Origin: Patescibacteria group bacterium
GTDB lineage: Bacteria; Patescibacteriota; Patescibacteriia; JACRDY01
Length of the DNA: 64,000 nucleotides
Direction: 5' to 3'
Assembly (NCBI GenBank): GCA_041650515.1
Contig: JBAZLA010000002.1
Location: 103,659-167,658, forward strand
The notes beneath the pieces were generated by a model. The model was given only the letters and a program-made list of their open reading frames with translations, was not told the DNA's origin and did no database searches. Made by a program: the position numbers and the translations under genes. Shown here piece after piece: positions 6,331 to 28,285 of this stretch; the first letter of the stretch is position 1; each line of letters opens with the position of its first letter.

Positions 6331-7449
6331 ATGAAAAATTTGCCGCCACCGCGCGTCAAAATAATCTATTTAGTTCTGGGCGCGATAATCTTTGGCATAA
6401 CATTATTAGCCGCTCCAGCGCTCGCCGAATGGACCGAAGCTTCTTGTGTCCAATCCGGCGGCTGGTGGTATTCGGATAATTGCTGGGCTAATAACCCGAT
6501 GATTAATCTGGAGATACCTTTTGGCGGACTGCCCGCCAGCGGCCGTATTGGCATTGCTCAATATATCGGCGCGATTTATAAATTTGGCGTCACAACAGCC
6601 AGCGTCTTGGCAATTGTCATGATTATTATCGGCGGATTTATTTGGCTAACTTCAGCTGGCAGTCAGACCCGAATTACCCAGGCTAAAGGCTATATCGGTG
6701 GCGCTCTGATTGGTCTAGTGCTCGCGCTTGGCAGTTACACTATTTTAAGATTAGTTAATCCAGCTTTAACTGAATTTCGTCCGCTGCGAGTTTTATATTT
6801 AGAAGAAGAAAAGGTTGATTCCGGCGCTAACTTTTGTCCAGCCTCAACCGAAGATATGCCCTTATTTGATCTCAATAAAAAGAAACAAAAAGTTGGTGAT
6901 AAAGGCGAATGCGGGCAAGATTATAAAGTTGGCGATGCCGAAGCAACCGGCACCTGTCCGGGCTCTCACTGCAGCGGTGGCGGCATCTGCCTAATGGACG
7001 CCTCTAAAGATCCCAAAACCCTGCCTGACGGCCGTAAACAAGCAGTCATGGCTTGCCAATACCCAGAAGATGCTTGCAATAAAGTAGTTGATGAGAAAGT
7101 TGGTAATTTAAGCTTACCAACAAGTCAAGGTGCTTGTGATCAAATTAATAACCAAATAGCTTGGAGTGTTAGTAACCCTACCGGTACCTGCCATTGGGTC
7201 GATGAACCATATTCTGATGATGCTTGTTACTGGTGTCCTGAGGATAAAGAAAAGGTCGTAGCAGACGATTTAAAATCAGGAAAAACAAAATGTGAAGATT
7301 TGAGTGTTGGTCGATTCACTGGGACAAAAGAAGAAGATGCTTGCAATATAACAGTTTGTTCAAAGAGTTGCAGTGTTTATGTTGGCAGACCATTTTGGGA
7401 AGGAGTGACCGGCACTCTAGCGAGTGAAGCCCGCTCACTATGTAAATAG
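6331..7449 (+). CDS. Secreted Cys-rich protein with conserved two-helix hydrophobic hairpin (VirB2/TrbC-like topology), paralog 1; Cys-rich C-terminal domain of unknown function
   Basis: Signal peptide/TM (IIYLVLGAIIFGITLLAAPALA), Cys/Trp-rich N-domain, conserved block IAQYIGAIYKFGVTTASVLAIVMIIIGGFIWLTSAGSQTRITQAKGYIGGALIGLVLALGSYTILRLVNPALTEFRPL shared with the next three genes. Confidence 0.7.
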   Translation: MKNLPPPRVKIIYLVLGAIIFGITLLAAPALAEWTEASCVQSGGWWYSDNCWANNPMINLEIPFGGLPASGRIGIAQYIGAIYKFGVTTASVLAIVMIIIGGFIWLTSAGSQTRITQAKGYIGGALIGLVLALGSYTILRLVNPALTEFRPLRVLYLEEEKVDSGANFCPASTEDMPLFDLNKKKQKVGDKGECGQDYKVGDAEATGTCPGSHCSGGGICLMDASKDPKTLPDGRKQAVMACQYPEDACNKVVDEKVGNLSLPTSQGACDQINNQIAWSVSNPTGTCHWVDEPYSDDACYWCPEDKEKVVADDLKSGKTKCEDLSVGRFTGTKEEDACNITVCSKSCSVYVGRPFWEGVTGTLASEARSLCK

Positions 7450-7451
7450 AT

Positions 7452-8447
7452 ATGCTATCTAGAAATAAAAAGAAAAAATACACCGCTATTATCCTTGTTA
7501 TTTTTATTGGCTTATTTCTAGCCGCTAACCTTGTTTTAGCAACAGACGAAACTCCGCCCAAATGGACTAAGGACGGCTGTGACCAGGCTGGCGGCTGGTG
7601 GTTTGAAAGTAACTGTTGGGCTAATAACCCCACCATCAACCTGGCTGTACCTTTTGGTGGTCTAAAACCAAATACAACTATTGGCATCGCCCAATATATT
7701 GGTGCAATCTACCGTTTTGGCATCAGCGCGGCCAGTGTCTTGGCGATTGTGATGATTATTATCGGCGGGTTTATCTGGCTAACTTCAGCTGGTAATCCCA
7801 CGCGCGTCACCCAAGCTAAAGGCTACATCGGCGGCGCTCTAGTAGGTCTGGTACTAGCCCTCAGCAGTTATTCCATTCTCAGAACTATTAACCCAGCCCT
7901 AACTGAATTTAGGCCATTACACATTCTCTATGTCGGCGAAGCACCATTGGCGATTGCCACCTGCTGTGAAAAAGACGGCCAAATGAATATTATTTATGAG
8001 GCAAACCAAGAATGCCCCGAGGGTCAAAAAAAAGTCACTTGCCCGTGCAAAGAATTAGCCGCTAACGAATGCCAAGCTGGCATGGTAAAATCAACTAATT
8101 CTGATAAAATTAAAACTGGCTGTTACTCCACTGGCACTTGGATGAATATCGGCGGTGTTTATACTGCTGGCGGACTCCGAACTTGCGCCGAGATAGAATA
8201 CGGTGAAGATTGTTCCAACTTTGGCGGATTATTTGGCGGCCAGGCCTGCCGTAACTACGGCAAAACTTTTACTCACAAAGGTGGCACGGGCATCGTGCCG
8301 GACTATCCTGATCTCTTTAAAAATATCTGCACTTCTGATCCTTGCCAGATCGGCCCCTGTAAGTTTGTACAAACATCCAAAGATAAGGATGGCGTTCTTC
8401 AAAAACTAAACTGGTGTATTGGCGCCAATGAACAACCGCCAGAATAG
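7452..8447 (+). CDS. Paralog 2 of the hairpin family; Cys-rich C-terminal domain
   Basis: Start 3 nt after paralog 1 stop; near-identical N-domain motif GGWWFESNCWANNPTINL and conserved hairpin block IAQYIGAIYRFGISAASVLAIVMIIIGGFIWLTSAGNPTRVTQAKGYIGGALVGL...NPALTEFRPL; divergent Cys-rich C-terminus. Confidence 0.7.
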   Translation: MLSRNKKKKYTAIILVIFIGLFLAANLVLATDETPPKWTKDGCDQAGGWWFESNCWANNPTINLAVPFGGLKPNTTIGIAQYIGAIYRFGISAASVLAIVMIIIGGFIWLTSAGNPTRVTQAKGYIGGALVGLVLALSSYSILRTINPALTEFRPLHILYVGEAPLAIATCCEKDGQMNIIYEANQECPEGQKKVTCPCKELAANECQAGMVKSTNSDKIKTGCYSTGTWMNIGGVYTAGGLRTCAEIEYGEDCSNFGGLFGGQACRNYGKTFTHKGGTGIVPDYPDLFKNICTSDPCQIGPCKFVQTSKDKDGVLQKLNWCIGANEQPPE

Positions 8448-8476: not shown

Positions 8477-9688
8477 ATGTTTATCAAAAAACAAAAAATA
8501 AAACTAAGCCTAGTCACTTTTATCGCTCTGGCTAGTATTTTTGTTTATTTAGCGCCAGCTCTAGCTCAAAGCGGCGAGAACTGTTGTGTTTGTACTGATT
8601 TTGGTGGTAAAGACGTAAAATACGCTCCGGGCGTACCTGATGCTAACGGTAAATGCGACCAACATATCACCTACTCTACTGAGTGCTACGGTGAGGGCTG
8701 CGCCACTACCCCGGATAAAGTTTGCTCAGTCAAAGGTGGCAGCTGCAAAAGCTGGCAAGCGGCCATTGATAAAGTCTCGGGTGAAGAAGCAGCCAAAAAA
8801 GAACTATTACCAGCGACTCCCCCAGTTTTGCAAGTTAATATCCCCGGCCTCACTTTTACCGGCGAAATCAAAGCCACCATGGAAGAAATGGGTCGACGTT
8901 ATTATAATATTCCCTGGCTAGCTGAATATATCGGCGCGGTTTACCGTTTTGGTGTTAGCGTGGCTAGCGTCCTAGCAATCGTTATGATAATTATTGGTGG
9001 CTTTATCTGGATGACCTCGGCTGGTAACCAGGCCCGGATCACCCAAGCTAAGGGTTATATTAGCGGCGCGCTGATTGGCCTCTGTATTGCTTTGGGTAGC
9101 TACGGCGTTTTAAAAGTGGTTAACCCGGCCTTGGTCAATCTCCGGCCACTTAAGATACTGATGATTGAGTTTGAAGACCTAACTGGCGTCTCCACCAATG
9201 ATGATACGGCAGCTGCTAACCTTAGCTTTTCTCCTTCTACGCCGACCGGCGATACTCAACTCCTAAAGTTAAATAATTATAAGGGTCGACCAATTATATT
9301 AGATAAATCAATCGCCAACACAGTTCAACAGATTTTACAACAATTGATTGATGGCGGTTTTCAGGTAAAAGATGCCTCTAGCCATCGCCCCAATCAAGCT
9401 GGTTTTTCTTGGCATAAGTCCGGACTAGCTATTGATATTAATCCAGCTGAAAATCCATGCCCATGTTGCTATACTGGCACAGACTATAAACAATGCTCCT
9501 CTGATAAGTGGAAACCGGGAGTGGGTGGTGCCGTGACTAAAGAAGTAGTGGATGCCTTTAAAGCGCAAGGTTTCTGCTGGGGGGGAGATTGGTGTCATTT
9601 TAAGGATTACATGCATTTTTCGAAACCATCAAATAGCGCCAGCAAAGAGTGCGGAAACGGCGGAAATGGTTGTCCTTATCAGTGGTAA
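8477..9688 (+). CDS. Paralog 3 of the hairpin family with C-terminal peptidase M15 (VanY/phage L-Ala-D-Glu peptidase-like) peptidoglycan hydrolase domain
   Basis: Signal peptide, CCVC Cys-rich N-domain, conserved hairpin block (EYIGAVYRFGVSVASVLAIVMIIIGGFIWMTSAGNQARITQAKGYISGAL), then SSHRPNQAGFSWHKSGLAIDIN ... GFCWGGDWCHFKDYMHF matching Zn-binding S-x-H...D and WGGxW...DxxHF motifs of M15 peptidases. Confidence 0.75.
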   Translation: MFIKKQKIKLSLVTFIALASIFVYLAPALAQSGENCCVCTDFGGKDVKYAPGVPDANGKCDQHITYSTECYGEGCATTPDKVCSVKGGSCKSWQAAIDKVSGEEAAKKELLPATPPVLQVNIPGLTFTGEIKATMEEMGRRYYNIPWLAEYIGAVYRFGVSVASVLAIVMIIIGGFIWMTSAGNQARITQAKGYISGALIGLCIALGSYGVLKVVNPALVNLRPLKILMIEFEDLTGVSTNDDTAAANLSFSPSTPTGDTQLLKLNNYKGRPIILDKSIANTVQQILQQLIDGGFQVKDASSHRPNQAGFSWHKSGLAIDINPAENPCPCCYTGTDYKQCSSDKWKPGVGGAVTKEVVDAFKAQGFCWGGDWCHFKDYMHFSKPSNSASKECGNGGNGCPYQW

Positions 9689-9698
9689 AAATATATCT

Positions 9699-10994
9699 AT
9701 GTTGAATAAATATTTAAAAATTGCGTTACTAACTATACTCTTTTGTTTAGCTCTAAGTCTCCAACCGGTTTTCGCCGGCGAGAGTTGCTGTGTTTGCAAC
9801 CCACTTAAAAATAAAGACAACCAAACTGCTAGTGGCGCGCCAACCGAGGGTAAATGCGACCAATATATTATTTATAGCACTCCAACTTGCCATGGCCAAT
9901 ATTGTCCACCTCAAGGACAACCAACTAATGAATGCCGAATTTTGGAATCTAGCTGCGCTAATGTTAGTAAAGCCATTTTAGAAAAAATCAACGGCCAAAA
10001 TAGCAAACAACCACTGCCTATTGAGGCACCCAATCTCCAAATCGCTATCCCCGGGCTAACTCTTACCCAACCAATCAGTGCTAAGGAAATGCCTAATACC
10101 GGTCGTTTATTCTATTCTATCCCCTGGATTGGCGAGTATATTGGGGCGATTTACCGCTTTGGGGTTAGCGCCGCCAGTATTTTAGCTATAGTGATGATTA
10201 TTATTGGCGGCTTTATCTGGCTCACTTCAGCCGGCAACCCGACCAAGATCACCCAAGCTAAGAGCTATATCAGCGGCGCCTTGCTCGGCTTAATGCTCGC
10301 TTTGGGTAGCTACACTATTCTAAGATTAGTTAATCCCTCGCTAGTCAATCTCAGCTCAATCAAAATTTTGATGATCGAATATGAACAAATGGAACAAGGT
10401 GGCCACGAATCGGATTATTTTCAAGTTAACTCTGGCGCCAAAGGTGCAGTTAGCGCCTATGATAGTGCTCCTTGTCCAACTAATGCTGAGGCGACTAACG
10501 GCTTTCAAGCCTTTATCACTGCTTACTATTCTCCGCCGCCCGGCGAAAAAGGTTTTTATAATAGTTTTGAATGTAACGTGGCGATGCAGTGCTCCTGCAC
10601 CCGCGATTCCAGTAAAACTTGCAGTCATAAATACGGCCCAGGTTGTCTGTTTAAAAAACCAGTAGAACAATTGATCCCTAATATCGACTACTGTACCAAA
10701 ACTGCCAGCGGTTCACCACCAACCTCCTGGGTCACTGTCGCCGCTGATGTTAAAAAGGGCACTGGCAAAGGCTGGGCGGATCATAAAGAATGTTGGAGTT
10801 TTGGCGACACTTTTGAAATTTATGACAGCGGCGGTAATAAAGTCGGCAATACGTGGGTGATTGGCGACCAAGGCTCAGCCATCAAAAGCCGCCACTTTGA
10901 TCTTTATGTCGGTACAGATTTATCCAAGGCTAGGAGCCTGGGTGGCGTTTATACAATCAAATTTACCAAGTGTACCAAATGTCCACTGCGTTAA
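9699..10994 (+). CDS. Paralog 4 of the hairpin family with C-terminal 3D-domain (MltA/YuiC-like) cell-wall hydrolase domain
   Basis: ORF track start 9552 overlaps paralog 3. ATG 9699 gives canonical signal peptide MLNKYLKIALLTILFCLALSLQPVFAGE; CCVC Cys-rich N-domain; conserved hairpin block; C-terminus AFITAYYSPP...CTKTASGSPPTSWVTVAADVKKG...WVIGDQGSAIKSRHFDLYVGTD matches TAY...ITASG...AVDP...DTGGAIKG.RIDLF pattern of 3D domains. Confidence 0.75.
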   Translation: MLNKYLKIALLTILFCLALSLQPVFAGESCCVCNPLKNKDNQTASGAPTEGKCDQYIIYSTPTCHGQYCPPQGQPTNECRILESSCANVSKAILEKINGQNSKQPLPIEAPNLQIAIPGLTLTQPISAKEMPNTGRLFYSIPWIGEYIGAIYRFGVSAASILAIVMIIIGGFIWLTSAGNPTKITQAKSYISGALLGLMLALGSYTILRLVNPSLVNLSSIKILMIEYEQMEQGGHESDYFQVNSGAKGAVSAYDSAPCPTNAEATNGFQAFITAYYSPPPGEKGFYNSFECNVAMQCSCTRDSSKTCSHKYGPGCLFKKPVEQLIPNIDYCTKTASGSPPTSWVTVAADVKKGTGKGWADHKECWSFGDTFEIYDSGGNKVGNTWVIGDQGSAIKSRHFDLYVGTDLSKARSLGGVYTIKFTKCTKCPLR

Positions 10995-11588
10995 ATGACT
11001 AACAAAATTCTCCAAACTTCTTTTTATAACCGACCAACACGTCAAGTTGCCCAGGATCTCCTGGGTAAAATTATTATCCGTCAAATCGGCCGCAAAAAAT
11101 ATTACGGCCTTATTACCGAAACTGAAGCTTATTGCGGGCCTCAGGACCAGGCCTCCCACGCTAGCAAAGGCCGCACCCCACGCACCGAGGTAATGTTTGG
11201 CCCAGCCGGCCACACCTATATCTATCTGATTTACGGTCTGTATCATTGTTTCAATATTGTCACCGAAAAAAAAGACTACCCAGCCGCGGTCCTGATCCGT
11301 GGCGCCCTCCCCTTACCAAAGGAATGGTTGGGTGGGGTTACTCTGCCCCTTTCCAAGAGGGAGATGGCCGAAGGCCAGAGGGGGTTAGCTAGTGGCCCAG
11401 GCAAACTCTGCCGTTATTTTAAAATTGATAAAACACTAAATAACCTCGATATTACTAAACCCAATAAACTTTGGCTGGTCGACAGCGGGCTAAAACCCCA
11501 AAGAATCATTCGCCGGCCTCGGGTCGGCGTTGATTACGCTGGTAAATACAAAGACAAAAAATGGCGGTTTATTACCCGATTTTCTTGA
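10995..11588 (+). CDS. mpg: DNA-3-methyladenine glycosylase (Mpg/AAG family)
   Basis: ATG overlaps TAA of upstream gene (taaATG); motifs GLITETEAYCGP, MFGPAGHTYIYLIYG, AVLIRGA, GPGKLC typical of Mpg family. Confidence 0.85.
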   Translation: MTNKILQTSFYNRPTRQVAQDLLGKIIIRQIGRKKYYGLITETEAYCGPQDQASHASKGRTPRTEVMFGPAGHTYIYLIYGLYHCFNIVTEKKDYPAAVLIRGALPLPKEWLGGVTLPLSKREMAEGQRGLASGPGKLCRYFKIDKTLNNLDITKPNKLWLVDSGLKPQRIIRRPRVGVDYAGKYKDKKWRFITRFS

Positions 11589-12168
11589 TACTATTTCTAT
11601 CTTCATCCCAATTTAAAGGATTATTGATAATATATTCGCTGATTTTTTGGTATTCTATTTGATTACGAATAATGTGTTCGTAATAATTTCGTTGCCATAA
11701 TCGTTGATCAAACGGCGACCAATTATTTTGTTTAACGTTTTTAATATATTCGTTGGTGGACATGGTTTTGAACCATTGCACCACCCGGGGTATTAATTGT
11801 TGGGAACGACGTAGGGGCAGACCCGGCGGTATTGGCAGACCTCTGTGTCTGCCCTGTTGGTTCGGGCAGACACAGAGGTCTGCCCCTACGTCGTCGATAA
11901 TTTCCACAATTCCATGAATATGATTTGGCATAACCACAAACACACCCAATCGAATGGTCAAAAATTTGTTCGGTAGTTTAGACCACCATTTTTGTGCCAT
12001 CCGACCCGCCGGATTTAAAATCATTCCCCCGTTTTCCACCCGACCGAATAAATAAACCATATTTTGGCTACAGATGGTAATGAAATATTGCCCCATTCCC
12101 GAATAATCATAATCGGGCAAGCGGATAGAACGACGGTGATGGTAATCGGGGTTATACATAGATAACAA
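11572..12168 (-). mobile_element. REP-associated tyrosine transposase (RAYT / IS200-like Y1 HuH transposase) gene with intragenic REP-like insertion
   Basis: HuH motif MPNHIHGIVEI and catalytic Tyr motif EYIINNP; about 30 extra residues (VGADLCVCPNQQGRHRGLPIPPGLPLRRS) between the two motifs are encoded by a GC-rich compound palindrome. Confidence 0.75.
11806..11894. repeat. GC-rich REP-like compound palindrome (BIME-like) inside the RAYT ORF
   Basis: Outer 18-bp perfect inverted arms acgacgtaggggcagacc / ggtctgcccctacgtcgt; inner units ggcagacctctgtgtctgccc and gggcagacacagaggtctgcccc are reverse complements of each other; GTAG/CTAC tetranucleotides flank the hairpins as in REP sequences. 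Confidence 0.8.
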
Positions 12169-12221
12169 AAGATAAGGCCTATCCTGACTCTATCATGGTG
12201 GACATTAAAGAAATCTAAAAT

Positions 12222-12245
12222 AAAAAAAGGGACGACGATCGTCCC
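12222..12245 (-). terminator. Rho-independent terminator candidate downstream of GC-rich island gene
   Basis: On minus strand GGGACGA-TCG-TCGTCCC (7-bp GC stem) followed by TTTTTTTATTTTAG; additional GC hairpins at 12275-12288 and 12300-12315. Confidence 0.5.
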
Positions 12246-12315
12246 CGACTAAGCTCGGACTAACCCACAAGGGTGGCTGGTCCCAGCCCAGTTAATTGTG
12301 CTGCTTGTAGGCAGC

Positions 12316-12681
12316 TTATTTTTTGGCTTTGGGCTTCTGGCGCGACTTGGGCCGACACCGGCTATTCAGCCAGTCGTCGAACGATCCGACGCTGGCAAAA
12401 TCCGCCTCGTTCGGCTTCTTGCCGTTGACGGCCATCAGATGACGCGCGGCCACCTGCATCACCCCGGTGCCTGACGGATGCCGGAAACGGGCTACCACAC
12501 CCGCTCCCTGCGAGTCGTGACCAAGGCCAATAATCTCCAGACGCTGCCCCAGGGCCGGCGCCAGATGGGCGATAGAGCCAATCGTGGCTCCGCCGCCAGC
12601 GCACGGGCTATTCCGGTTGATCTTGGCCACCACACCAGGATCAACCGATTCGAAAGTCACAGTAATGAATTCTCGACGCAT
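12316..12681 (-). CDS. Small basic protein of unknown function, GC-rich island gene B (paralog of 13047..13448)
   Basis: ORF track gives 12316..12765 but AGGAGG lies 8 nt upstream of ATG at 12681 (MRREFITVTF...); C-terminal basic tail KSRQKPKAKK; region is about 60% GC versus about 40% elsewhere. Confidence 0.55.
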   Translation of the reverse strand: MRREFITVTFESVDPGVVAKINRNSPCAGGGATIGSIAHLAPALGQRLEIIGLGHDSQGAGVVARFRHPSGTGVMQVAARHLMAVNGKKPNEADFASVGSFDDWLNSRCRPKSRQKPKAKK

Positions 12682-13046
12682 AGGGGCCCCTCCTACCAAA
12701 GATTGAGGCAATTGTTTAAAAAGAACCCACACCCCAGCCCGCCTCATTAGGCTAAGGTGATTCACTGATTATTTATTTAATTACCATATTTTCAGTCTTC
12801 AGTCAATAACAATATTCTAAATAAAACAAAATGGGGCAGACGCGTAGTCTTACCCCGGCGCAAGATCGTGGGCAGGCGGGCCTTTGAATCAGCGCAAATT
12901 TCCTCTTTTGGGTTTCCTTCCCCCCTTGTGTGACCGCGCCGCATTGCGGTCGAAGAATTCAACCCCCTTGAGGAAGACGATATCGCTTGGTCAGAAGAGA
13001 ACACAAGGTAGCTCATCTGGCGAAGCGACAAATGCAAAAGGACGTC

Positions 13047-13448
13047 TTACGACCGGCGACGAACTTTGCCGCTGCCGCCGGACTGCTTCTTCTTGCCGCT
13101 GCCGCCGTTGCAGTGGAGCAGAAGAAATTCGCCGAGAAACGTCTCGGCATCCGTCAGATGCTGCTCGGTCGGTTTGATCTTATCGGCGCTCATGACATGC
13201 TGCGCCATGACCTGCAGATCACCCGGATTGAGCCGGCCTTGCAGAGCCTCAGGCAGGGCGAATCGGATGATCGGTCTTCGCAACTTGGGGTGATCAGCGA
13301 TTTCCACCACCGTAAGCTCATGACCGATCAACTGACCGAGTCGTTCGTGGTGACGAGCCTTACTCGGTCGGCCATTCAACACGCATTCACTGTCGCCATT
13401 GAGACAAACAGTGAGCCCCTTCGGAACCTCAACAAACTGAAACTCCAT
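13047..13448 (-). CDS. Small basic protein of unknown function, GC-rich island gene A
   Basis: GAGGT 7 nt upstream of ATG; C-terminal Gly/Lys/Arg tail; segment LQVMAQHVMSADKIKPTEQHLTDAETF aligns with VMQVAARHLMAVNGKKPNEADFASVGSF of gene B; preferred over overlapping plus-strand ORF 12987..13451, which lacks an RBS. Confidence 0.55.
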   Translation of the reverse strand: MEFQFVEVPKGLTVCLNGDSECVLNGRPSKARHHERLGQLIGHELTVVEIADHPKLRRPIIRFALPEALQGRLNPGDLQVMAQHVMSADKIKPTEQHLTDAETFLGEFLLLHCNGGSGKKKQSGGSGKVRRRS

Positions 13449-13569
13449 TAGCGTTACCTCTTCTTTCAGGGCATAGGAGAATGAGCTTTTAGTTGGTCTT
13501 CCGCCTTAGACCTCTGTATAGCCCTAAACGCCAAGGATTCGCCCCGTTGATCCTGACGTAATTATTCGC

Positions 13570-13599
13570 ATTATAAACAAAAAGAATAGTTCTTGTCAA
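13570..13599 (-). promoter_or_regulatory. Perfect consensus sigma70 promoter TTGACA-N18-TATAAT reading into the GC-rich island genes
   Basis: Minus strand: TTGACA (13599..13594), 18-nt spacer, TATAAT (13575..13570), about 115 nt upstream of gene A start. Confidence 0.6.
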
Positions 13600-13613
13600 C
13601 TATCTTCTTAATT

Positions 13614-13715
13614 GTCATTGCGAGGCCCGACGTAAAGTCGGGCCGAAGCAATCTCATGATATATCCACCAGATTGCTTCGTCGCTCCGCCGGCTGGCGGA
13701 GCTCCTCGCAATGAC
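13614..13715. repeat. 102-bp nested compound palindrome (closing stem plus three internal hairpins, all perfect Watson-Crick)
   Basis: Outer gtcattgcgag/ctcgcaatgac (11 bp); hairpin 1 gcccgac-gtaaa-gtcgggc; hairpin 2 cgaagcaatc-17 nt-gattgcttcg; hairpin 3 gctccgcc-ggct-ggcggagc; linkers 0-2 nt. Confidence 0.8.
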
Positions 13716-13757
13716 GTGGTCAATAAATTTGCTTTATTGTTTTCTTGCTTTATTGAC

Positions 13758-15857
13758 CTATTCCCAATGCACTCGCTCGGCCATTTCCCTTACCTTATCT
13801 TTGAGTAAATAATATTTACTTAATTCTGGATCACTGTGGATAACTTTAGCTGCCCACTCACGCGCTTGCTTAATGGCTGCTAAATCAAACAAACTAGCTA
13901 GCCGTAAATTAGGCAAACCACTCTGCATGGTGCCTAGGGTCTCACCTGGCCCGCGAAATTCTAAATCTTTCTCGGCTAGTGCAAAACCATCCTGGCTAGC
14001 CACTAACGCCGCTAGACGCCTAGCGGTTATCTCACTAGCCGATTCGGTAAATAAAAAACAATAGGATTGGTGCTCTGATCGACCCACCCGACCGCGGAAT
14101 TGGTGCAACTGCGCTAAACCAAAACGCTCAGCCCCTTCGATCATCATCACCGTGGCATTAGGCACATCCATGCCCACTTCCACTACGGCCGTGGCGACCA
14201 AAACTTTAATTTTATTAACCAAAAAATCTTGTCGTACTCGCTCTTTCTCCGCCGATTTTAACCGACCATGCAAAATGCCAATCGCATGTTCTGGAAAAAT
14301 TTCTTTGTCTAGTTTAATAAATTCTTCTTCCGCCGACTTAACGCCTAATTTGTCTGACGGATCAATCAATGGACAGATCACAAAAGCCTGTCGACCAGCT
14401 TCAATCTGCTGCCTAATAAATTGATAAGCCGGCCGATACTTATTAGATTCAATAATTTTGGTGATAATTTTTTTACGACCCAGCGGCAATTCATCAATAA
14501 TTGATAAGTCTAAATCGCCATAGATAGTCAAAGCTAACGACCGCGGGATTGGGGTGGCGGTCATTGATAAAAAATGAGGCAATAAACCGCTATTACCCGC
14601 TCGTTCTTTAAGCGCCTGGCGCTGTTTAACACCAAAACGATGTTGTTCGTCAACGATCGCCAGAGCTAAGTTTTTAAATTCAATCTTTTCTTGGATCAAA
14701 GCGTGAGTGCCAATAATAACGTCAATTTTACCGGCTTTAAGCATCTTAATCACCTCTGAGTGCTTTTTATTTTCTGCTTCACCTAGCGAGCCAAAAAACA
14801 ACTTAACGCTACCCCGAGTTAATAAACCAATGTTAATATCCGCTCCGGACAAGAGTTTACTCACAGTTTGAAAATGCTGATTGGCTAGTATCTCGGTTGG
14901 GCAGAGCAAGGCGGCCTGATATTTGTTACTAACAACATTAAGCATCGCTAAAGTAGCCACCACGGTTTTACCCGAGCCAACATCACCTTCGAGCAGCCGA
15001 TTCATTGGCTGATTTTTTTGTAGATCCTTCAGAATCTCCCAAGCCGCTTTACGTTGAGCCGTCGTCAGTTTAAATGGTAAACTAGCGACAAAATTTTTAA
15101 TCACTCCCTCTTTAAATTCTAAGCTACTGGAGTGGCTTTTTTCTAGTTCGCGACGCGCGAGTTGGTTTTGCAGCTGAATAATAAAAAATTCGTCAAACTT
15201 AAGCCGACGCCGCGCCTGCTGCAGCCTGGCTTGGCTATCGGGAAAATGGATCTGCCTGATAGCCGCTATCAGGCCGGGAAATTTTAAAGCTAAAATAATC
15301 TCCGCCGGCAAATAATCCTTAATACTTTTTAATTGGGTCAAAACGATCTTAATCAGATAACGAATTTGTTTAGAAGTTATCCCCTTGGTCAAGGGATAAA
15401 CCGGTACCAGCCGAGCGGTATGCGTCGGCCCACTAGCGGCTTTAACCTTGGTAATCTTTTCATAGCTTGGCGAATGAAATAAAATTCCCTTATCAAAATC
15501 AACCTTACCAGCAATAAAAACCTCATCGTTCGGCTGTAAAATTTTACTCACAAAGGGTTGGCCGAACCAAATAACTTTTACTGAACCAGTAATATCAGTG
15601 ATAATCGCTTCGGTAACTATCCGTCGCGCTCGCCAAGAACGGAAATTTTTAATCAATTCTACTCTGCCACGAACGGTCGCCGTAACCCCCGGCGCCAAAT
15701 CCCGAATATCAACTACCTGACTAAAATCATCATAGCGAAACGGATAATAAAAAATGAGATCGGCTATCGTCTCAATTTCTAATTTTTTTAATTTTGGCGC
15801 TAATCTAGCGGCAATTTTATTAAGATAACTAACCGGCGTTTTTAAATTAATCAACAT
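13758..15857 (-). CDS. recG: ATP-dependent DNA helicase RecG
   Basis: 699 aa; N-terminal wedge/OB region, helicase motif I DVGSGKTVVA, DEQHRFGV (motif II), C-terminal helicase domain motifs; canonical RecG architecture. Confidence 0.9.
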   Translation of the reverse strand: MLINLKTPVSYLNKIAARLAPKLKKLEIETIADLIFYYPFRYDDFSQVVDIRDLAPGVTATVRGRVELIKNFRSWRARRIVTEAIITDITGSVKVIWFGQPFVSKILQPNDEVFIAGKVDFDKGILFHSPSYEKITKVKAASGPTHTARLVPVYPLTKGITSKQIRYLIKIVLTQLKSIKDYLPAEIILALKFPGLIAAIRQIHFPDSQARLQQARRRLKFDEFFIIQLQNQLARRELEKSHSSSLEFKEGVIKNFVASLPFKLTTAQRKAAWEILKDLQKNQPMNRLLEGDVGSGKTVVATLAMLNVVSNKYQAALLCPTEILANQHFQTVSKLLSGADINIGLLTRGSVKLFFGSLGEAENKKHSEVIKMLKAGKIDVIIGTHALIQEKIEFKNLALAIVDEQHRFGVKQRQALKERAGNSGLLPHFLSMTATPIPRSLALTIYGDLDLSIIDELPLGRKKIITKIIESNKYRPAYQFIRQQIEAGRQAFVICPLIDPSDKLGVKSAEEEFIKLDKEIFPEHAIGILHGRLKSAEKERVRQDFLVNKIKVLVATAVVEVGMDVPNATVMMIEGAERFGLAQLHQFRGRVGRSEHQSYCFLFTESASEITARRLAALVASQDGFALAEKDLEFRGPGETLGTMQSGLPNLRLASLFDLAAIKQAREWAAKVIHSDPELSKYYLLKDKVREMAERVHWE

Positions 15858-18413: not shown

Positions 18414-20291
18414 TTAATTTGGTGTTGCGGTTGCGCCGATAGATTGGTCTTCTCCAGTAGCCACCCGCTCATCAAACTCCTTTTTGGCAGCCTCAATCTC
18501 TAACAGCTGCCTTGGATCAGAAGTAATTAATTGATCCTCGGTATATGAGGCAACCACCTTAATCGCCGCATGACGGTTACCAGCAAAAAAGATACCCTCG
18601 CCGACGCCACATTCCAAAAGTAAATACTTTTCGCCCTCGGTAAGCAGAAAAGTTTTTTGAATATGATCAATGGATGATGGCGACTGTTTCATTAATATCT
18701 GCAAAGCTGAATTATTAACAATCGCTTGGCCATAAGGTGACAACAAAAAGTCATTAACATCCTGCGTAATAGTAGTCACCCCTAAATAATATTTACGACA
18801 ACGTTTTACCAGGGCAAAAATAAACCGCGCCGAATCTTCATTCTGCATCAACCACCAGCCTTCGTCAATAACCAAAATTCTTTTCTTGCGCTCAGAACGG
18901 ACGACATTCCAAATATAATTAACTAGATTATAAATAGCTAAAGGCCGCAGCTCGTCCTCTAGATCACGGACAGAAAAACAAACTAACTGATTATTAGTAT
19001 CAACATTAGTCGGACTATTAAACAAACCAGAAAAGGTACCCTCGGTAAACTTCTTAAACCGAGTGGCCATATCCGATCCGCCTTCCATACCCTCTAAAAT
19101 ATCAACCAAGTCTTGAATCAATGGCGGCTCGATGTCTTTAAGATTAGAATCAGCTGTAATGTCTTTTTTGGCATAGGTTTCCAATAGCGCCCGATCTAAA
19201 AGAGCGTCTTCTTTAGCGCTAATTTTGCCTAAAATTAGACGACACAGGCCTTTAATGGTAATAACGGCGCTGCGGATAATATCCTCCGTTTTAAAGTCTT
19301 TCTCCACTGGTCGCGGTAGGTCAAAAGGATTAACCTTGCTCTCAGAAGCGAGCGAAATATTAATATAAGTTCCGCCCACTGCGTCAGAGAGGTGTTTATA
19401 CTCTTTTTCTGGGTCAATAACAATAATATCCACCCCCAACATCAGACTCCTAAGTATCTCCAGTTTGATCGCGTAGCTCTTGCCAGCACCCGAGGTGGCA
19501 AAAACCACCATATTAGCATTCTGCAAACTAAATCGGTCGAACAAAATCAAACTGTTATTATGCCGGTTGATACCGTACATAATGCCATTGTCCGAGCTCA
19601 ACTCAAAAGAAATAAAAGGAAAGGACGAGGCACAGGGGGAGGTATTCATGTTGAAGGTAATTGCTAGTTCATCCAGACCCATTGGCAAAGTTGAATTGAA
19701 TCCTTGTTCGGCCTGATACAGAACTTGGCGAGAATAAACTAAACGCGAACCAAAAATATCTTCCATATCTTCGGTCAGCTCATCCAGCTCTTTCAAACTA
19801 TCGGCATAAATAGTGACATATAAAGCATATTGAAAAAAATGCTCAACACCTTGGGTTAAATCGTCACGCAGCTTCTCGATATCACGCAAAGCGGTTTCTT
19901 TGATCGGGTCACGAGGAGCACCCTTGTCGCGATCAGCAAAAATTTCTGCTTCTAGGTTACCCACTCTTTTTTTGAGCTGCTTGAGAATAAGCGCTGCCCT
20001 GACCGGATAAAAGAAGATCGAAACATCTAAAGGGTGGTTAAAGTTGATAATCGGCGAAAACCAACCAATAGTGATATAACGGGGATAGCTAATCACAAAC
20101 ATCGTCCGGACATATTTGGTGCCCAGAATAATATAGCTCGGCTTTACCTCTAAAGCAGCGGGAGCGATTAGATCAATAATCGAAATTTCGCCTTCGCGAT
20201 AACGACGCTCTTCTTCAATCACCTCCTTATTCAAAACGACCTGCGCCTGCTGTTCATTTTCTGGTTGTTTCTTTTTAAAAAATATCGACAT
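18414..20291 (-). CDS. virB4: VirB4/TrbE/PrgJ-family conjugative T4SS ATPase, C-terminal ATPase part
   Basis: Walker A VVFATSGAGKSYAI, Walker B ILVIDEGWWLMQ, typical VirB4 C-terminal domain; ATG in frame 3 nt after the TAA of the upstream ORF. Confidence 0.85.
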   Translation of the reverse strand: MSIFFKKKQPENEQQAQVVLNKEVIEEERRYREGEISIIDLIAPAALEVKPSYIILGTKYVRTMFVISYPRYITIGWFSPIINFNHPLDVSIFFYPVRAALILKQLKKRVGNLEAEIFADRDKGAPRDPIKETALRDIEKLRDDLTQGVEHFFQYALYVTIYADSLKELDELTEDMEDIFGSRLVYSRQVLYQAEQGFNSTLPMGLDELAITFNMNTSPCASSFPFISFELSSDNGIMYGINRHNNSLILFDRFSLQNANMVVFATSGAGKSYAIKLEILRSLMLGVDIIVIDPEKEYKHLSDAVGGTYINISLASESKVNPFDLPRPVEKDFKTEDIIRSAVITIKGLCRLILGKISAKEDALLDRALLETYAKKDITADSNLKDIEPPLIQDLVDILEGMEGGSDMATRFKKFTEGTFSGLFNSPTNVDTNNQLVCFSVRDLEDELRPLAIYNLVNYIWNVVRSERKKRILVIDEGWWLMQNEDSARFIFALVKRCRKYYLGVTTITQDVNDFLLSPYGQAIVNNSALQILMKQSPSSIDHIQKTFLLTEGEKYLLLECGVGEGIFFAGNRHAAIKVVASYTEDQLITSDPRQLLEIEAAKKEFDERVATGEDQSIGATATPN

Positions 20292-20294
20292 AGC

Positions 20295-20993
20295 TTATTC
20301 TTCAACTTTAATTTTATCAACCTCTATCATTTTTTCCGACTCCGATAACTGCGGGTTATAAGAATTATAATACAACTCAATCAAACTCTGGGTGTCGAGC
20401 GGCGTGGCTTGCAGGCCCATACTATTCAAACCGCCAATCACGTGACTAACCCGCTGATATAAATCTCGACGTCTCTGATTAAACCTTTCTTCGCCGAGTT
20501 TGATCAAACTCGTGGGAGTAAACAGCTCCAATAGCCTTGACCAAAAACCGCGTTGCTTGTCCGATAAGGGATTATAAGGCACAACAATATAAAACTTCTT
20601 AGTCATAATATCGCCAATTTTGACCAGTTCGGCCACAAAATTACGGTAGTCTTTAATCTGCATTTTTAGCAGTTCATTAATCTGTTCTTTCTCAAATTTT
20701 TTTAACCTATCTAAATAATCATCAATATCAAACCGACGCGACTGGATAACAATCTGAATAGGAAAATCAATTGAATTTAAAAAGCTCATATAAGCGGTAA
20801 CAATCGCTTGTTGCTCATCAGACGACTTAAGCGCAAAATTAATGCTAGCGACCATAACAACCGCTCGCAAAGTTCCATCTTTAAGCACCACGCAGTCATT
20901 ACGAACCTCGGCAATCGGTACGTACTTCTTGGTTGACGGAGTAGATTTGTTTGTTGCTCGCTTACTCTTCATAGATTGATTTATAAATACCAC
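20295..20993 (-). CDS. VirB4 N-terminal domain (CagE/TrbE/VirB N-domain) encoded as separate ORF
   Basis: PIAEVRNDCVVLKDGTLRAVVMVASINFALKSSDEQQAI matches N-terminal region of VirB4 proteins; 232 + 625 aa equals normal VirB4 length; same frame as the ATPase ORF, separated only by TAA-GCT. Confidence 0.65.
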   Translation of the reverse strand: MVFINQSMKSKRATNKSTPSTKKYVPIAEVRNDCVVLKDGTLRAVVMVASINFALKSSDEQQAIVTAYMSFLNSIDFPIQIVIQSRRFDIDDYLDRLKKFEKEQINELLKMQIKDYRNFVAELVKIGDIMTKKFYIVVPYNPLSDKQRGFWSRLLELFTPTSLIKLGEERFNQRRRDLYQRVSHVIGGLNSMGLQATPLDTQSLIELYYNSYNPQLSESEKMIEVDKIKVEE

Positions 20994-21399
20994 CAGTATT
21001 AACTACCAACGATAGCTCCTCCAGGTGTGAACTCGACATTAATTTTTTGGGCGCAATTTTTCTGACCGAACTAACCGCCACTGGACGCTGTAAAATTTCT
21101 CTAATCTCTTGATCGGTTAAACTTTTATCCCAAACTTTAAGCTTCGGTTTTTTAAATGTCTCGATAACATTAAGTAAAAAATAATGAAACGGTCGCCCAT
21201 TAATCTTAGCAAAAGCAATAGTGCCAAAGATAGCAAAAATCAACACCGTCGACACAACAAAAGTCCAAAAATCAAACAACTTATAACAAACAAAAATCAG
21301 CATCAAGGCAACAATACTAATAATAAACTGACGGACGGTAATCGGACCAAACACCCGCGGCTCAACCTCGATAAATTGGGGAACAAGAAACTGTTCCAT
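20962..21399 (-). CDS. PrgI/VirB3-like small membrane protein
   Basis: FGPITVRQFIISIVALMLIF followed by a second TM helix, matching the GLTxRQ + two-TM signature of PrgI-family VirB3 analogues; overlaps VirB4-N start. Confidence 0.6.
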   Translation of the reverse strand: MEQFLVPQFIEVEPRVFGPITVRQFIISIVALMLIFVCYKLFDFWTFVVSTVLIFAIFGTIAFAKINGRPFHYFLLNVIETFKKPKLKVWDKSLTDQEIREILQRPVAVSSVRKIAPKKLMSSSHLEELSLVVNTGGIYKSIYEE

Positions 21400-25288: not shown

Positions 25289-28285
25289 TTATTTACCCTT
25301 GCCAAAATATTTTCGGAATAAACTTGATAAAGAACCGTATAAATCAGTACCTTGTTTATTCTTAAGCGAAGCTATCTCCTGAGCCAAACGTTCGCCCTCG
25401 GCACTACCCATTTTTTTGGCCATATTCTCCATATTCTTAGCTAATTCTTGGGCTAATCGACTAGTCTGGGCGTTAGAGTCGCCTCCTTTTAGATCTTTAA
25501 TTGCGTCAGTTAATTTGCCGACATTTTCTTCCATTTTGGTTAATAATTCTCTGCTGCCTTCTGGATAGGTCTCTCTTGACCGAGGTTCTCTGGCTTCAGA
25601 TTTGGTTCCACCGGCTGTTTCTTCTTCATCTTCAGTAAACGGTCTATTAGTTGCTGGATTAATAATTCGACTTCCCGCCGGCTCGGGCTTACCACCTTCA
25701 GGAGTTTTATTACTACTTAATAATCCGCCTAAAACTTTACTAAACCGTTCAGCATCTCCATCACTAAATTTCCCACCTTTCAATATTGGCTCTAATTTAG
25801 CCTGTATATCTTTACTCCCAGTTCGGCCGAAATATTGATAATTTAAAACATCCATCAAAAGCTTTGGATTTTTCTTATGCTCAAGTTGTAACCTTCTGAG
25901 TGTTTCCCCTTTACTGCGGTAATTTCCATCGGGATCTGTCCCATCCATAATCTCACCGGTCTTACGATCAATCCAACCCGACTCATTCTCTGCAATACTA
26001 CCTTGACGTAAAACATGTCGCCCAAAACGGGTCTGACCGCGATGGAGTTCAGCGGAAAACTCTGGACCCAAATATTTATACATCGCCCGATTATACATGC
26101 TCCCGCCTTCGTAACCTCTAGTATCGATGGAGGAATCACCAGTTTCCTTATTATAAGCCCTATTGACAACATTATGAGAAGCAAAAGATTTTCTAAAAGT
26201 CGCTGTATCCATCTTGGCAGCGTTGCCCTGTACATCTTTTATTTTCGCTATATTATTTAGTAATAATGGCAAGCCGCTTTGAGAATCCTTAAGTACTGTT
26301 GACTGCTCCCAATGGCCAATTTTTCTGGCGGTTTGGGTCATAGTCTGCATCCGCCACAAACCGCGCTTTTCATCCTCAGAAGCATTTTGAGTATTATCGA
26401 TTTGTTTTTGCTTGACTTTAGCCCCATATTGTCCCCATAGTTCCTCCCGAGCAGCATCTTCAGCATCAACTCGGGTGTCATATTCCCCACTTTTAAATTT
26501 ATTCTCAATTAGTGCCTGTAAATCAACTTTATTTTCACTGAGCATATCCTCAAAAATCTTTTCCGGATCAAATTTTTCCCTACCCAAATCAAGTAATTTC
26601 ATATCCATAATCTTATAAGTCTCATCAGTACCCTTTAGGGCGTGATTATAATCATCAAAACCCCACGATTTAGCCGTTGCTTCTCTTTCTTCTGGGTTTA
26701 ATTTAGCCCATTTTTTAATAACAGCATCATAAACATCATCCTTATTGCCTTCCCGAGTAGCTAAACCTAAATGGCCAGATGTCCGGTCATAACCTTCCCG
26801 GGTTTTGTCTTGCATCGCCCGCAATACGCCCTCAACCATATTTTCCAGGTTAAGGTCGCCGCCTAATTCTTCTTCGGCTTTTTTCTCCGCGGCGGCCTGG
26901 ATCTTCAACTCAGTCATCTGCTCGATCGGCGGCATGGCTTTCTCTCCCACCATCGCCTTCTGCCACCATTTATTACCTCTACCTTCGGCACGCTGCTTGG
27001 ACTTTTCATACATTTCATCACCACGCTTGCCGACGCCTTTCCAAAAACTCGGCGTTAGAAAAGCCAACCGACTCTCACCCACGGACGAAGCAATACGCTG
27101 ACCGATTCTTTTAGATCCTAGAACCAAGCCGGCCAACGGCGCACCAGCTACCTTCGTTCCCAACCCCTGCGCCTTAGCCACAAAAGCCGAACCGAGTTTG
27201 CCACCAGCGACACCCAGCTGGCCAGTCATCGACATACCCGCTACCAGCATACCAATCGAAATAATAAATTTTCCCATAAAACCCCAGCTGCCGGCATCAG
27301 TCGAACCAGCCTGAGGCACTTGGTCACCACCCGTTATCGGCGTACTGGCATCGCCACCCGGACTTTTTAGATCAGCATCAATACTACCAAAAACCGCTAG
27401 CGATAACCAAATAAAGAAGGCTAGGATCGGGCCAGTAATAACATATTTAGTAAACTGCTGCGACCACTGCCGGGCATAACTCTGACCCGAGGGAAAAGAC
27501 ATCAGTAAGAAAAAGACTGGGGAAAGAATAATCAAGAACCAAAGCATAATCACCCGAAAAGCCAGAATAATCACCATAATAACCAGAATCGCCAACAAAA
27601 ACACCGAGTAAATTAAAGCCAAAAACATTGAACCGGCAATACCCGATGGTGTTAATTGAGCATCGGTGACGTTACCACTCACCGACTGGGTAAGAGCAGC
27701 GCTGGCGCCCGACATGCTTAATAGCTTAGTAATACCGGTGGCGTTAATAAAATTACCTGGCCCGACATCTTTAAAAGCATTAACAAAGGTCAACATCACC
27801 ACCTGGGAAGCATCAATGGCTAAGCCGCAAATCGTTTTGGAAAAATTAACCAAAATCGCCAGAATAATCATCTTGGGCAGTAAACGCTTATAATTATAGC
27901 TTTCGATTTTAAGAATCGTGGCAAAGGCAATGATCAGGAAAATCAAAACAAAAAACATATTAACCACATCACGAACCACCACCCAGCCGATTACGACCGC
28001 CCCGGAGCTGATAAAAGTATTATACTGAGCAATCCATAGTAGCACCCAAAAAACCACCATGATCAACCCACCGATCAGCGCCACGAAGATCATTAGAATC
28101 ATCGCTACCACCAAAGCCACTACTAAGCCCGGCACGCCGCTACTTTGCGCGCCAGCTGATGACATATTAAGCAAAACGGCTGACAAAACTACTGCCAACA
28201 CTATACCAGCTAGCCGATAACGACTCCCAAGTACCAATAATTTCTGAGTAAACCGATCAAATATTTTTTTGATTGAGTTGATCAT
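25289..28285 (-). CDS. VirB6/TrbL/PrgH-like polytopic membrane protein with about 600-aa hydrophilic C-terminal extension
   Basis: Seven or more TM helices in first about 380 aa, Gly/Ser-rich loop, long charged C-terminal domain; location between VirB4 and giant secreted protein. Confidence 0.5.
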   Translation of the reverse strand: MINSIKKIFDRFTQKLLVLGSRYRLAGIVLAVVLSAVLLNMSSAGAQSSGVPGLVVALVVAMILMIFVALIGGLIMVVFWVLLWIAQYNTFISSGAVVIGWVVVRDVVNMFFVLIFLIIAFATILKIESYNYKRLLPKMIILAILVNFSKTICGLAIDASQVVMLTFVNAFKDVGPGNFINATGITKLLSMSGASAALTQSVSGNVTDAQLTPSGIAGSMFLALIYSVFLLAILVIMVIILAFRVIMLWFLIILSPVFFLLMSFPSGQSYARQWSQQFTKYVITGPILAFFIWLSLAVFGSIDADLKSPGGDASTPITGGDQVPQAGSTDAGSWGFMGKFIISIGMLVAGMSMTGQLGVAGGKLGSAFVAKAQGLGTKVAGAPLAGLVLGSKRIGQRIASSVGESRLAFLTPSFWKGVGKRGDEMYEKSKQRAEGRGNKWWQKAMVGEKAMPPIEQMTELKIQAAAEKKAEEELGGDLNLENMVEGVLRAMQDKTREGYDRTSGHLGLATREGNKDDVYDAVIKKWAKLNPEEREATAKSWGFDDYNHALKGTDETYKIMDMKLLDLGREKFDPEKIFEDMLSENKVDLQALIENKFKSGEYDTRVDAEDAAREELWGQYGAKVKQKQIDNTQNASEDEKRGLWRMQTMTQTARKIGHWEQSTVLKDSQSGLPLLLNNIAKIKDVQGNAAKMDTATFRKSFASHNVVNRAYNKETGDSSIDTRGYEGGSMYNRAMYKYLGPEFSAELHRGQTRFGRHVLRQGSIAENESGWIDRKTGEIMDGTDPDGNYRSKGETLRRLQLEHKKNPKLLMDVLNYQYFGRTGSKDIQAKLEPILKGGKFSDGDAERFSKVLGGLLSSNKTPEGGKPEPAGSRIINPATNRPFTEDEEETAGGTKSEAREPRSRETYPEGSRELLTKMEENVGKLTDAIKDLKGGDSNAQTSRLAQELAKNMENMAKKMGSAEGERLAQEIASLKNKQGTDLYGSLSSLFRKYFGKGK

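Follow-up and report, generated by a model that had tools for sequence, protein, structure and literature searches.

What is the last gene of a pilin-like array doing directly in front of a DNA-repair gene? The gene in question, here called paralog 4, lies in a 64-kb window (the whole stretch of DNA that was analyzed, 64,000 nucleotides of contig JBAZLA010000002.1 of an ultrasmall Patescibacteria group bacterium). It is the fourth of four tandem genes that resemble VirB2-like pilins of type IV secretion systems (T4SSs), and its stop codon is followed without a spacer by mpg, which encodes a DNA-3-methyladenine glycosylase. The reading that we favor, with a probability of roughly 0.75, is that paralog 4 is a pilin-anchored wall enzyme of the 3D type at the end of the array, and that mpg is merely packed behind it.

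The exact 431-residue sequence is deposited as MFA5076183.1 ('MAG: hypothetical protein WC480_02065 [Patescibacteria group bacterium]') on a contig of 243.5 kb, and its neighbors are labeled 'M15 family metallopeptidase' and 'DNA-3-methyladenine glycosylase'. A start at 9552, taken from a mechanical list of open reading frames (ORFs), was rejected; the true start is the ATG at 9699, which gives the length of the NCBI protein. An earlier note, made from the sequence alone, had assigned the C-terminal part to the 3D (MltA/YuiC-like double-psi beta-barrel) domains. The motifs that it quoted are where it had placed them, all inside the ORF ending at 10994: ITAYY (residues 273–277, nucleotides (nt) 10515–10529), TASG, VAAD (with D350), GDQGSAIK (with D390) and HFDLY (with D401).

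Searched as a single sequence, paralog 4 matches the 3D profile PF06725 over residues 380–412 (E = 6.7e-4, 20.3 bits). The match that the earlier note called for is thus present, but it falls under the curated cut-off of 23.8 bits. A phmmer search of the C-terminal 206 residues alone against the PDB returned only chance matches to FGFR kinase (E of 0.24 or worse). Both results could be taken to mean that the resemblance is a chance motif match in an unrelated Cys-rich domain. Since the single-sequence result is borderline, a homologous family was collected. Word-indexed searches returned 2 matches with the domain, 3 with the domain profile and 1 with the pilin region, and an exhaustive search of representatives was used instead. 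With E≤1e-3, this profile search of 1.84 billion cluster representatives recovered 316 proteins; with E≤1e-10, it recovered 94. Strong matches have 300–520 residues and carry the domain at the C-terminus; they form 94 or more clusters at 50% identity, and in nearly all of these the domain is joined to a pilin scaffold. PF06725 is matched individually by 80 of the 86 full-length family members.

All tests made at the level of profiles and structures point to 3D/MltA proteins. A domain profile built from 28 sequences finds Bacillus subtilis YuiC (E = 1.5e-5) and Escherichia coli MltA (E = 0.028) in the PDB, and nothing else with E below 1. The family profile also picks up, with weaker scores, short canonical 3D proteins (43 of 44 match PF06725, with E-values down to 9e-22), and a comparison of the family with these 44 proteins by hhalign gives a probability of 99.6% (E = 1e-23). 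An AlphaFold model of the domain alone has a predicted local distance difference test score (pLDDT) of 88.3 and a predicted template modeling score (pTM) of 0.85. A Foldseek search with this model places MltA from five species on top (E from 6e-5 upward), followed by LtgG, PA4485 and YuiC (probability 0.99), and then by other double-psi barrels, kiwellin, expansin and barwin; the ranking is as before with the full-length model. Chance resemblance was rejected on the basis of the YuiC and MltA profile matches, the Foldseek matches to MltA and the hhalign result, and we consider it extremely improbable. Judged by the family profiles and the predicted model, the C-terminal domain truly belongs to the 3D/MltA-type double-psi beta-barrels, as a divergent member, and the assignment made in the earlier note is borne out, with the catalytic residues intact. 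Paralog 4 and many of its relatives are annotated as 'hypothetical' because they score just under the Pfam 3D cut-off.

The residues expected of an enzyme are present. HMMER alignments place D350, D390 and D401 of paralog 4 opposite D261, D297 and D308 of MltA, so that all three aspartates are found. D308 of MltA, equivalent to D162 of YuiC, is the catalytic carboxylate, which is oriented by T91 in YuiC; D151 of YuiC (D297 of MltA) binds the sugar at the −2 site, and Y93 and D151 of YuiC are implicated in an alternative proposed mechanism (PMC4499186). An active lytic transglycosylase is favored mainly because this catalytic set is conserved. Judging from these alignments, the C-terminal domain is most likely a lytic transglycosylase that cuts the glycan backbone of peptidoglycan and leaves 1,6-anhydro-N-acetylmuramic acid (1,6-anhydro-MurNAc) ends.

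The same barrel could instead be a non-catalytic module that binds peptidoglycan or carbohydrate, in the manner of expansin, kiwellin or barwin, and that tethers or targets the pilin-like protein. Kiwellin, expansin and barwin-like proteins are indeed among the weaker Foldseek matches, some of them spanning the full length of the domain; 45% of the family lack the first aspartate of the 3D triad; and a Cys-rich insert described below has no counterpart in MltA or YuiC. Against such a role, D401 is invariant in all 86 sequences, with conservation of 97% or more at T274, Y276 and D390; both sequence and fold searches match the enzymes YuiC and MltA best; and sister genes on the same scaffold bear unambiguous hydrolase domains. 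We therefore regard a purely binding function as unlikely and continue with the enzyme.

YuiC, a Sps (stationary-phase survival) protein of Firmicutes (PDB 4WLI, 4WJT and 4WLK; PF06725), is the best PDB sequence match of the paralog 4 family. Both are minimal 3D double-psi barrels without the inserted domain of MltA, and they share the motif order TAY...TASG...AAD...DxGxxIKG.R.D, with D162, D151 and T91/Y93 of YuiC equivalent to D401, D390 and T274/Y276. They differ in context: YuiC-type proteins are small and secreted or carry LysM, G5 or SH3b modules, whereas the domain of paralog 4 sits on a VirB2-like membrane hairpin. The paralog 4 family also adds an insert of six cysteines and further conserved cysteines, and often loses the first aspartate. 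MltA (E. coli 2AE0 and 2PI8, and orthologues) is the top structural match, shares the three equivalent aspartates, and is likewise membrane-tethered and extracytoplasmic. However, diderm bacteria carry MltA as a lipoprotein of the outer membrane, and a second domain set into its barrel supplies half of the substrate groove; paralog 4 has no such second domain, and its anchor is a helical hairpin in a monoderm-type cell belonging to the CPR (candidate phyla radiation). Another 3D/MltA-type enzyme from a bacterium living off another is a secreted MltA-like lytic transglycosylase of Bdellovibrio bacteriovorus, which shows that an enzyme of this type can have the wall of a host or prey as its target (PMC10127604). 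It belongs to a diderm predator and is soluble and secreted, with no pilin scaffold. Its relevance to CPR bacteria is by analogy only.

A feature specific to the family is the Cys-rich insert between the TAYY and TASG motifs, which is about 55 residues long in the family alignments. Its cysteines at 292, 298, 300 and 332 are invariant in the 86 sequences, C308 is nearly so, and a 'PC' column of the alignment matches C316 of paralog 4 by eye. Other conserved cysteines lie outside the insert, at 259, 365 and 425. On the sequences collected, this 3D variant with its multi-cysteine insert is specific to Patescibacteria.

For the genomic context, 19 related loci (9 from genomes and 10 from metagenomes, with one duplicate, L008 = L018), found with a three-sequence alignment, were compared; the window and 14 fetched loci make up the 15 informative ones. 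In four of them a DsbA/Thioredoxin_4 gene is located directly upstream of the pilin-3D gene (L005, 8553–9194; L007, 2638–3279; L008, 8582–9238; L015, ∼1294–1926). In the window, L001 and L010, the DsbA-like gene is missing from this position, which is held by extra pilin paralogs, and a search of the whole 64-kb window found no dsbA. The conserved pattern of cysteines, the predicted extracytoplasmic location of the domain and the DsbA-like neighbor in four loci suggest that the cysteines of the insert probably form disulfides.

The N-terminal half of paralog 4 resembles a T4SS pilin. Its hydropathy profile has three segments (residues 1–28, 147–180 and 190–211), consistent with a signal peptide, whose cleavage site was set by eye, followed by a two-helix hairpin. 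In the AlphaFold model the hairpin helices span residues 143–176 and 181–211 with pLDDT of ∼95, and a short linker joins them to the C-terminal domain, which is also well predicted in the full-length model (residues ∼250–425, pLDDT ∼90). The Cys-rich segment near the N-terminus is common to paralogs 3 and 4. With this layout, the signal peptide would be cleaved and the hairpin would lie in the membrane, so that the Cys-rich segment near the N-terminus and the C-terminal domain would both be outside the cell.

As with the 3D profile, the scores of single sequences against the pilin profile PF18895 (T4SS_pilin) are low. The four window paralogs score 21.8 (paralog 4, E = 2e-4), 22.5, 25.4 and 17.5 bits, each under the cut-off of 26.6. 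PF18895 is nevertheless matched by 79 of the 86 family members, with a best E of 1.5e-14, and close orthologues exceed the cut-off; for example, that of L001, 52% identical in the hairpin region, scores 35 bits. The four tandem paralogs (331–431 residues) are 50–71% identical to each other in the hairpin region. Paralog 1 is closest to paralog 2 (66% identity), and paralog 3 to paralog 4 (54% over 227 residues, including the N-terminal Cys-rich part).

The C-terminal regions on this scaffold vary. Paralog 3 carries a Peptidase_M15_4 domain (E = 4e-19), which agrees with the earlier claim that two different cell-wall hydrolase chemistries are attached to the same scaffold in adjacent genes. In L001, a close relative, a pilin-Amidase_2 gene is followed by pilin-3D; L009 (Ca. 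Buchananbacteria) has pilin-NlpC/P60, pilin-3D and pilin-M23 consecutively; and L002 (Ca. Parcubacteria) has pilin-3D, pilin-unknown, pilin-3D, pilin-3D and pilin-Amidase_2. In all, five families of peptidoglycan-cleaving domains (3D, M15, Amidase_2, NlpC/P60 and M23) occur on the VirB2-like anchor. The scaffold is thus shown to be modular, swapping peptidoglycan hydrolase heads, and the variety of heads means that one array can target glycan strands as well as peptide stems and cross-links. A globular head of about 200 residues on each subunit might not allow a homopolymeric pilus.

Some other C-terminal regions were also noted. Those of paralogs 1 and 2 had no match in Pfam and NCBIfam scans; these two proteins hold 18 and 16 cysteines in total and may bear further unrecognised heads. 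Some pilin-3D proteins have a third C-terminal module, which is a GDSL lipase in P0095. In P0013, P0035, P0030, P0067 and P0080, extensions of ∼115–145 residues past the 3D domain end in H...D/HxH patterns that by eye look like LAS metallopeptidases. An M15-like identity for these five extensions, which would have put 3D and M15 on a single chain, was rejected, as they show no similarity to the M15_4 domain of paralog 3, no Pfam match and no profile match in the PDB.

The array is located near genes for a secretion machine (Table 1). A VirB4-like gene lies about 7.4 kb away, followed by genes for a PrgI/VirB3-like component and a large membrane protein with a weak TrbL/VirB6 match. This arrangement, a tandem pilin array near virB4 and other T4SS genes, fits published T4SS loci of Patescibacteria (PMC12102498, PMC10633639, PMC12857230). 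Downstream of the T4SS genes are two giant ORFs on the minus strand, 28316–36625 and 41706–51269 (2769 and 3187 residues), the first with only a weak CBM_4_9 match.

Table 1. Coordinates of features in and around paralog 4 (positions in the 64-kb window; aa, amino acid residues).
Feature	Position	Strand	Evidence or remark
Paralogs 1 and 2 (6331–7449, 7452–8447)	6331..8447	+	pilin-like scaffold, Cys-rich C-terminal regions
Paralog 3, pilin scaffold with C-terminal Peptidase_M15_4	8477..9688	+	
Paralog 4 coding sequence	9699..10994	+	431 aa and stop; signal peptide, Cys-rich N region, hairpin, 3D domain
Predicted Sec signal peptide, aa 1–27, MLNKYLKIALLTILFCLALSLQPVFAG	9699..9779	+	hydropathy peak aa 1–28; model helix 2–19
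Predicted N-terminal extracytoplasmic Cys-rich segment	9780..10000	+	8 Cys at aa 30–86; low model confidence
Predicted two-helix transmembrane hairpin, VirB2/T4SS_pilin-like, aa 143–211	10125..10331	+	PF18895, AlphaFold model, hydropathy
C-terminal 3D domain (MltA/YuiC-type double-psi beta-barrel), aa 248–431, ∼180 aa	10440..10991	+	profiles, model, Foldseek
T274-A-Y276, equivalent to YuiC T91/Y93	10518..10526	+	T in 84/86, Y in 86/86
Family-specific Cys-rich insert between TAYY and TASG, aa 280–340	10536..10718	+	Cys 292, 298, 300, 308, 316, 332
D390 codon, equivalent to MltA D297 and YuiC D151	10866..10868	+	84/86
D401 codon, equivalent to catalytic Asp MltA D308 and YuiC D162	10899..10901	+	86/86, invariant
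TAA/ATG junction	10992..10997	+	paralog 4 stop abuts mpg start, 0-nt spacer
mpg, DNA-3-methyladenine (methylpurine) glycosylase, 197 aa	10995..11588	+	PF02245, TIGR00567
GC-rich hairpin with U-rich tail in mpg 5' region, terminator-like	11047..11068	+	∼55 nt inside the ORF
VirB4/TraG-type T4SS ATPase	18414..20291	-	P-loop_TraG E 1e-26, AAA_10, DUF87
PrgI/VirB3-like T4SS component	20962..21399	-	PF12666 E 2e-7
Large membrane protein, weak TrbL/VirB6 match	25289..28285	-	PF04610 E 4e-4, under cut-off

VirB2-like arrays have been described in Patescibacteria. In the available text of two studies, they consist of 2–11 tandem, divergent genes of the PF18895 type within about 20 genes of virB4 (PMC10633639, PMC12102498), and such an array is reported there as essential in S. 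epibionticum (Wang et al. 2023, PMC10633639; Quinonero-Coronel et al. 2025, PMC12102498). The four genes of the window, at their distance from the VirB4-like gene, resemble these arrays. In the same available portions the arrays are treated as pilin subunits, whereas at least two of the four proteins in the window carry peptidoglycan hydrolase domains. A limited literature search found no mention of hydrolase-fused pilins in the portions consulted of these Patescibacteria T4SS papers (PMC10633639, PMC12102498 and a supplementary table). Peptidoglycan hydrolases associated with T4SSs are believed to make a local gap in the wall for the machine, as summarised in PMC12102498. VirB1, TraG of pIP501 and PrgK are such wall-cutting activities encoded with a T4SS. 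They have SLT/lysozyme-like and CHAP folds and are separate proteins, whereas here a 3D domain (or an M15, Amidase_2, P60 or M23 domain) is fused to the pilin-like scaffold itself.

The second part of the question concerns mpg. The identity of its product as a DNA-repair glycosylase, proposed in the earlier note, is solid, with 202.8 bits against PF02245 (E = 3.8e-60, cut-off 27, profile positions 1–177 of 181) and 172.2 bits against TIGR00567 (cut-off 116.35). Translation of mpg can begin only at the ATG at 10995, as no other start codon precedes the conserved FYNRPTR motif. The overlap between the stop codon of paralog 4 and this start, which had been reported, does not exist: TAA (10992–10994) and ATG (10995–10997) merely abut. 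No Shine-Dalgarno-like motif is found in the 30 nt upstream of mpg, and consensus scans found neither a terminator-like site between paralog 4 and mpg nor, from 9475 to 11425 on the plus strand, a promoter-like site. Co-transcription of the two genes is plausible from these features, as is termination-reinitiation, which is proposed for mpg because there is neither a spacer nor a Shine-Dalgarno motif.

Such a junction does not stand out here: most genes of the window are without a Shine-Dalgarno motif and lie 0–30 nt apart. The ten same-strand genes between 176 and 11588 are separated by 16, 5, 22, 28, 6, 2, 29, 10 and 0 nt. More generally, the leaders of nearly all genes of the window are rich in A/T and contain no Shine-Dalgarno motif, and spacers on the same strand are mostly 0–30 nt, which suggests that initiation in this organism is largely independent of Shine-Dalgarno pairing.

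The pairing is also not widely conserved. In 3 of the 15 informative loci, namely the window, L001 and L010, mpg directly follows the pilin-3D gene; L001 and L010 are the closest relatives of the window and are ∼47% identical to it in the 3D domain. The L001 junction consists of TAA, a 10-nt spacer and a probable TTG start, while in L010 a GTG overlaps the stop region by 11 nt. In L003–L008 and L015, the next gene is radA (with zinc ribbon, AAA_25 and Lon_C matches); in the near-identical L012 and L013, radA comes after one intervening gene; and in L002, L009 and L014 another pilin gene follows. No radA was found in the 64-kb window, where the region compared is 10995–15857. The block that is conserved consists of a clpB/C-like gene, a beta-propeller gene, (a DsbA gene), the pilin-3D gene, radA or mpg, and then a convergent recG in most loci. 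Thus, mpg fills, in one clade, a slot within a conserved housekeeping neighborhood. A dedicated functional link between the wall enzyme and mpg was rejected, since mpg follows only in the closest clade and radA takes its place in more distant relatives; the 'odd functional pairing' of the earlier note reduces to an adjacency limited to these three loci.

A broader version of such a link would have the array and the T4SS take up or transfer DNA that is processed by co-expressed mpg, radA and recG, with a regulatory role for the mpg coupling. Several observations speak for it: of the 15 informative loci, 12 have a repair gene next (3 with mpg, 7 with radA directly and 2 with radA after one gene), recG is convergent downstream in most loci, the junctions are tight (from an 11-nt overlap to ∼60 nt), and a DNA-uptake role has been speculated for the T4SS of Patescibacteria (review, PMC11665869). 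However, the block also has clpB/C-like, beta-propeller and DsbA-like genes, which fits an inherited order of housekeeping genes; either mpg or radA can fill the slot, and their activities are unrelated; the arrays of L002, L009 and L014 have no downstream repair gene; and tiny spacers are normal for unrelated genes in the window. Shared ancestry explains the adjacency of array and DNA repair more simply than a functional link does, and we consider the latter improbable. The tight junction of paralog 4 and mpg looks like ordinary operon compaction in one clade, with no shared function.

One locus of this clade carries a puzzling label. L001 (CAYINJ010000002.1) is titled 'uncultured Gammaproteobacteria bacterium' and is nevertheless syntenic with the window (identities of 57% for clp, 50% for recG and 51% for mpg). 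The label is probably a binning or taxonomy error.

The region downstream of the junction differs between the window and L001. An ORF for an IS200-like Y1 transposase of the RAYT type (11572–12168, minus strand) lies between mpg and recG in the window and overlaps the 3' end of mpg by 17 nt. Beside it is a segment of higher GC content (51–55%, vs ∼40–47% in most surrounding intervals) with two ORFs, 12316–12765 and 13047–13448 on the minus strand, neither of which has a Pfam match. The stretch 11572–13450 looks like an insertion, because L001 has nothing between mpg and recG.

All three mpg-bearing loci share a hairpin within the 5' region of mpg. It has a free energy of −14.7 kcal/mol and z = −4.4 in the window; the same hairpin occurs in L001 (∼10625–10645, z = −2.3); and that of L010 (∼6580–6598, z = −3.6) is at the same codon positions, with compensatory base changes and different encoded residues. 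The hairpin may be a by-product of a conserved A-x-x-x-L-G motif, or, as a partial terminator or stabiliser, it may reduce read-through into a glycosylase gene that is potentially harmful. Stable hairpins are also seen in the 5' regions of radA in L004, L007 and L008, reaching −22 kcal/mol at ∼45–50 nt past the pilin-3D stop. They cover the codons of the Cys-x-x-Cys zinc ribbon, and could stem either from this protein motif or from an RNA element common to the region downstream of the array.

Taken as a mechanism, the favored reading runs as follows. Paralog 4 would be the last gene of a four-gene VirB2/T4SS_pilin-like array in a Patescibacteria genome. Its signal peptide would be cleaved and the hairpin inserted in the membrane, with both flanking segments left outside the cell. 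The 3D domain, with T274, Y276, D390 and D401, would then cut the glycan backbone at the surface beside a secretion machine of the VirB4/PrgI/VirB6 type, and the heads of the array would together act on glycan strands and on peptide stems or cross-links. The mpg gene would be a housekeeping gene for DNA repair in its own right, which is probably carried on the same transcript and translated by termination-reinitiation.

Several points weigh against this reading. As a single sequence, paralog 4 stays under the Pfam gathering scores for both of its halves (3D, 20.3 vs 23.8; T4SS_pilin, 21.8 vs 26.6). The Foldseek TM-scores are modest (∼0.3 of the query), as just ∼100 of 184 residues make up the shared barrel. 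D350, the counterpart of MltA D261 and the first of the aspartates that give the domain its name, is kept in 47 of the 86 family members. The peptidoglycan that would be cut may be the cell's own or that of a host. The loci were chosen for holding a 3D domain, which biases the frequency of hydrolase heads upward. Finally, most transcripts could stop at the mpg hairpin before mpg is expressed.

The components of this system are known and the architecture is new, a novelty that we regard as modest: a 3D wall-cutting domain fused to the pilin-like anchor of a secretion system. A family-specific profile would correct the 'hypothetical' annotation of paralog 4 and its relatives. For the mpg junction, little significance is seen beyond operon compaction in a genome largely without Shine-Dalgarno motifs. 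The hydrolase heads, with their different bond specificities, point to breaching of the wall, the cell's own or a host's, as one job of the array, and hydrolase-headed pilins are candidates for the missing VirB1 activity. The T4SS and its pilin array are essential in the one genetically tractable Patescibacterium, and recent reviews nonetheless call the role of the system 'completely unknown' (PMC11665869, PMC12857230). We tentatively suggest, as a possibility that is less likely than not, that the pilin arrays are a modular toolkit and not plain pilus subunits. A VirB2-like hairpin with interchangeable 3D, M15, M23, NlpC/P60 and Amidase_2 heads would be displayed on the membrane or on a T4SS pilus, replacing the largely missing VirB1 or breaching the host wall in epibiotic attachment. 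If true, this would give a testable function to arrays that are essential and unexplained.

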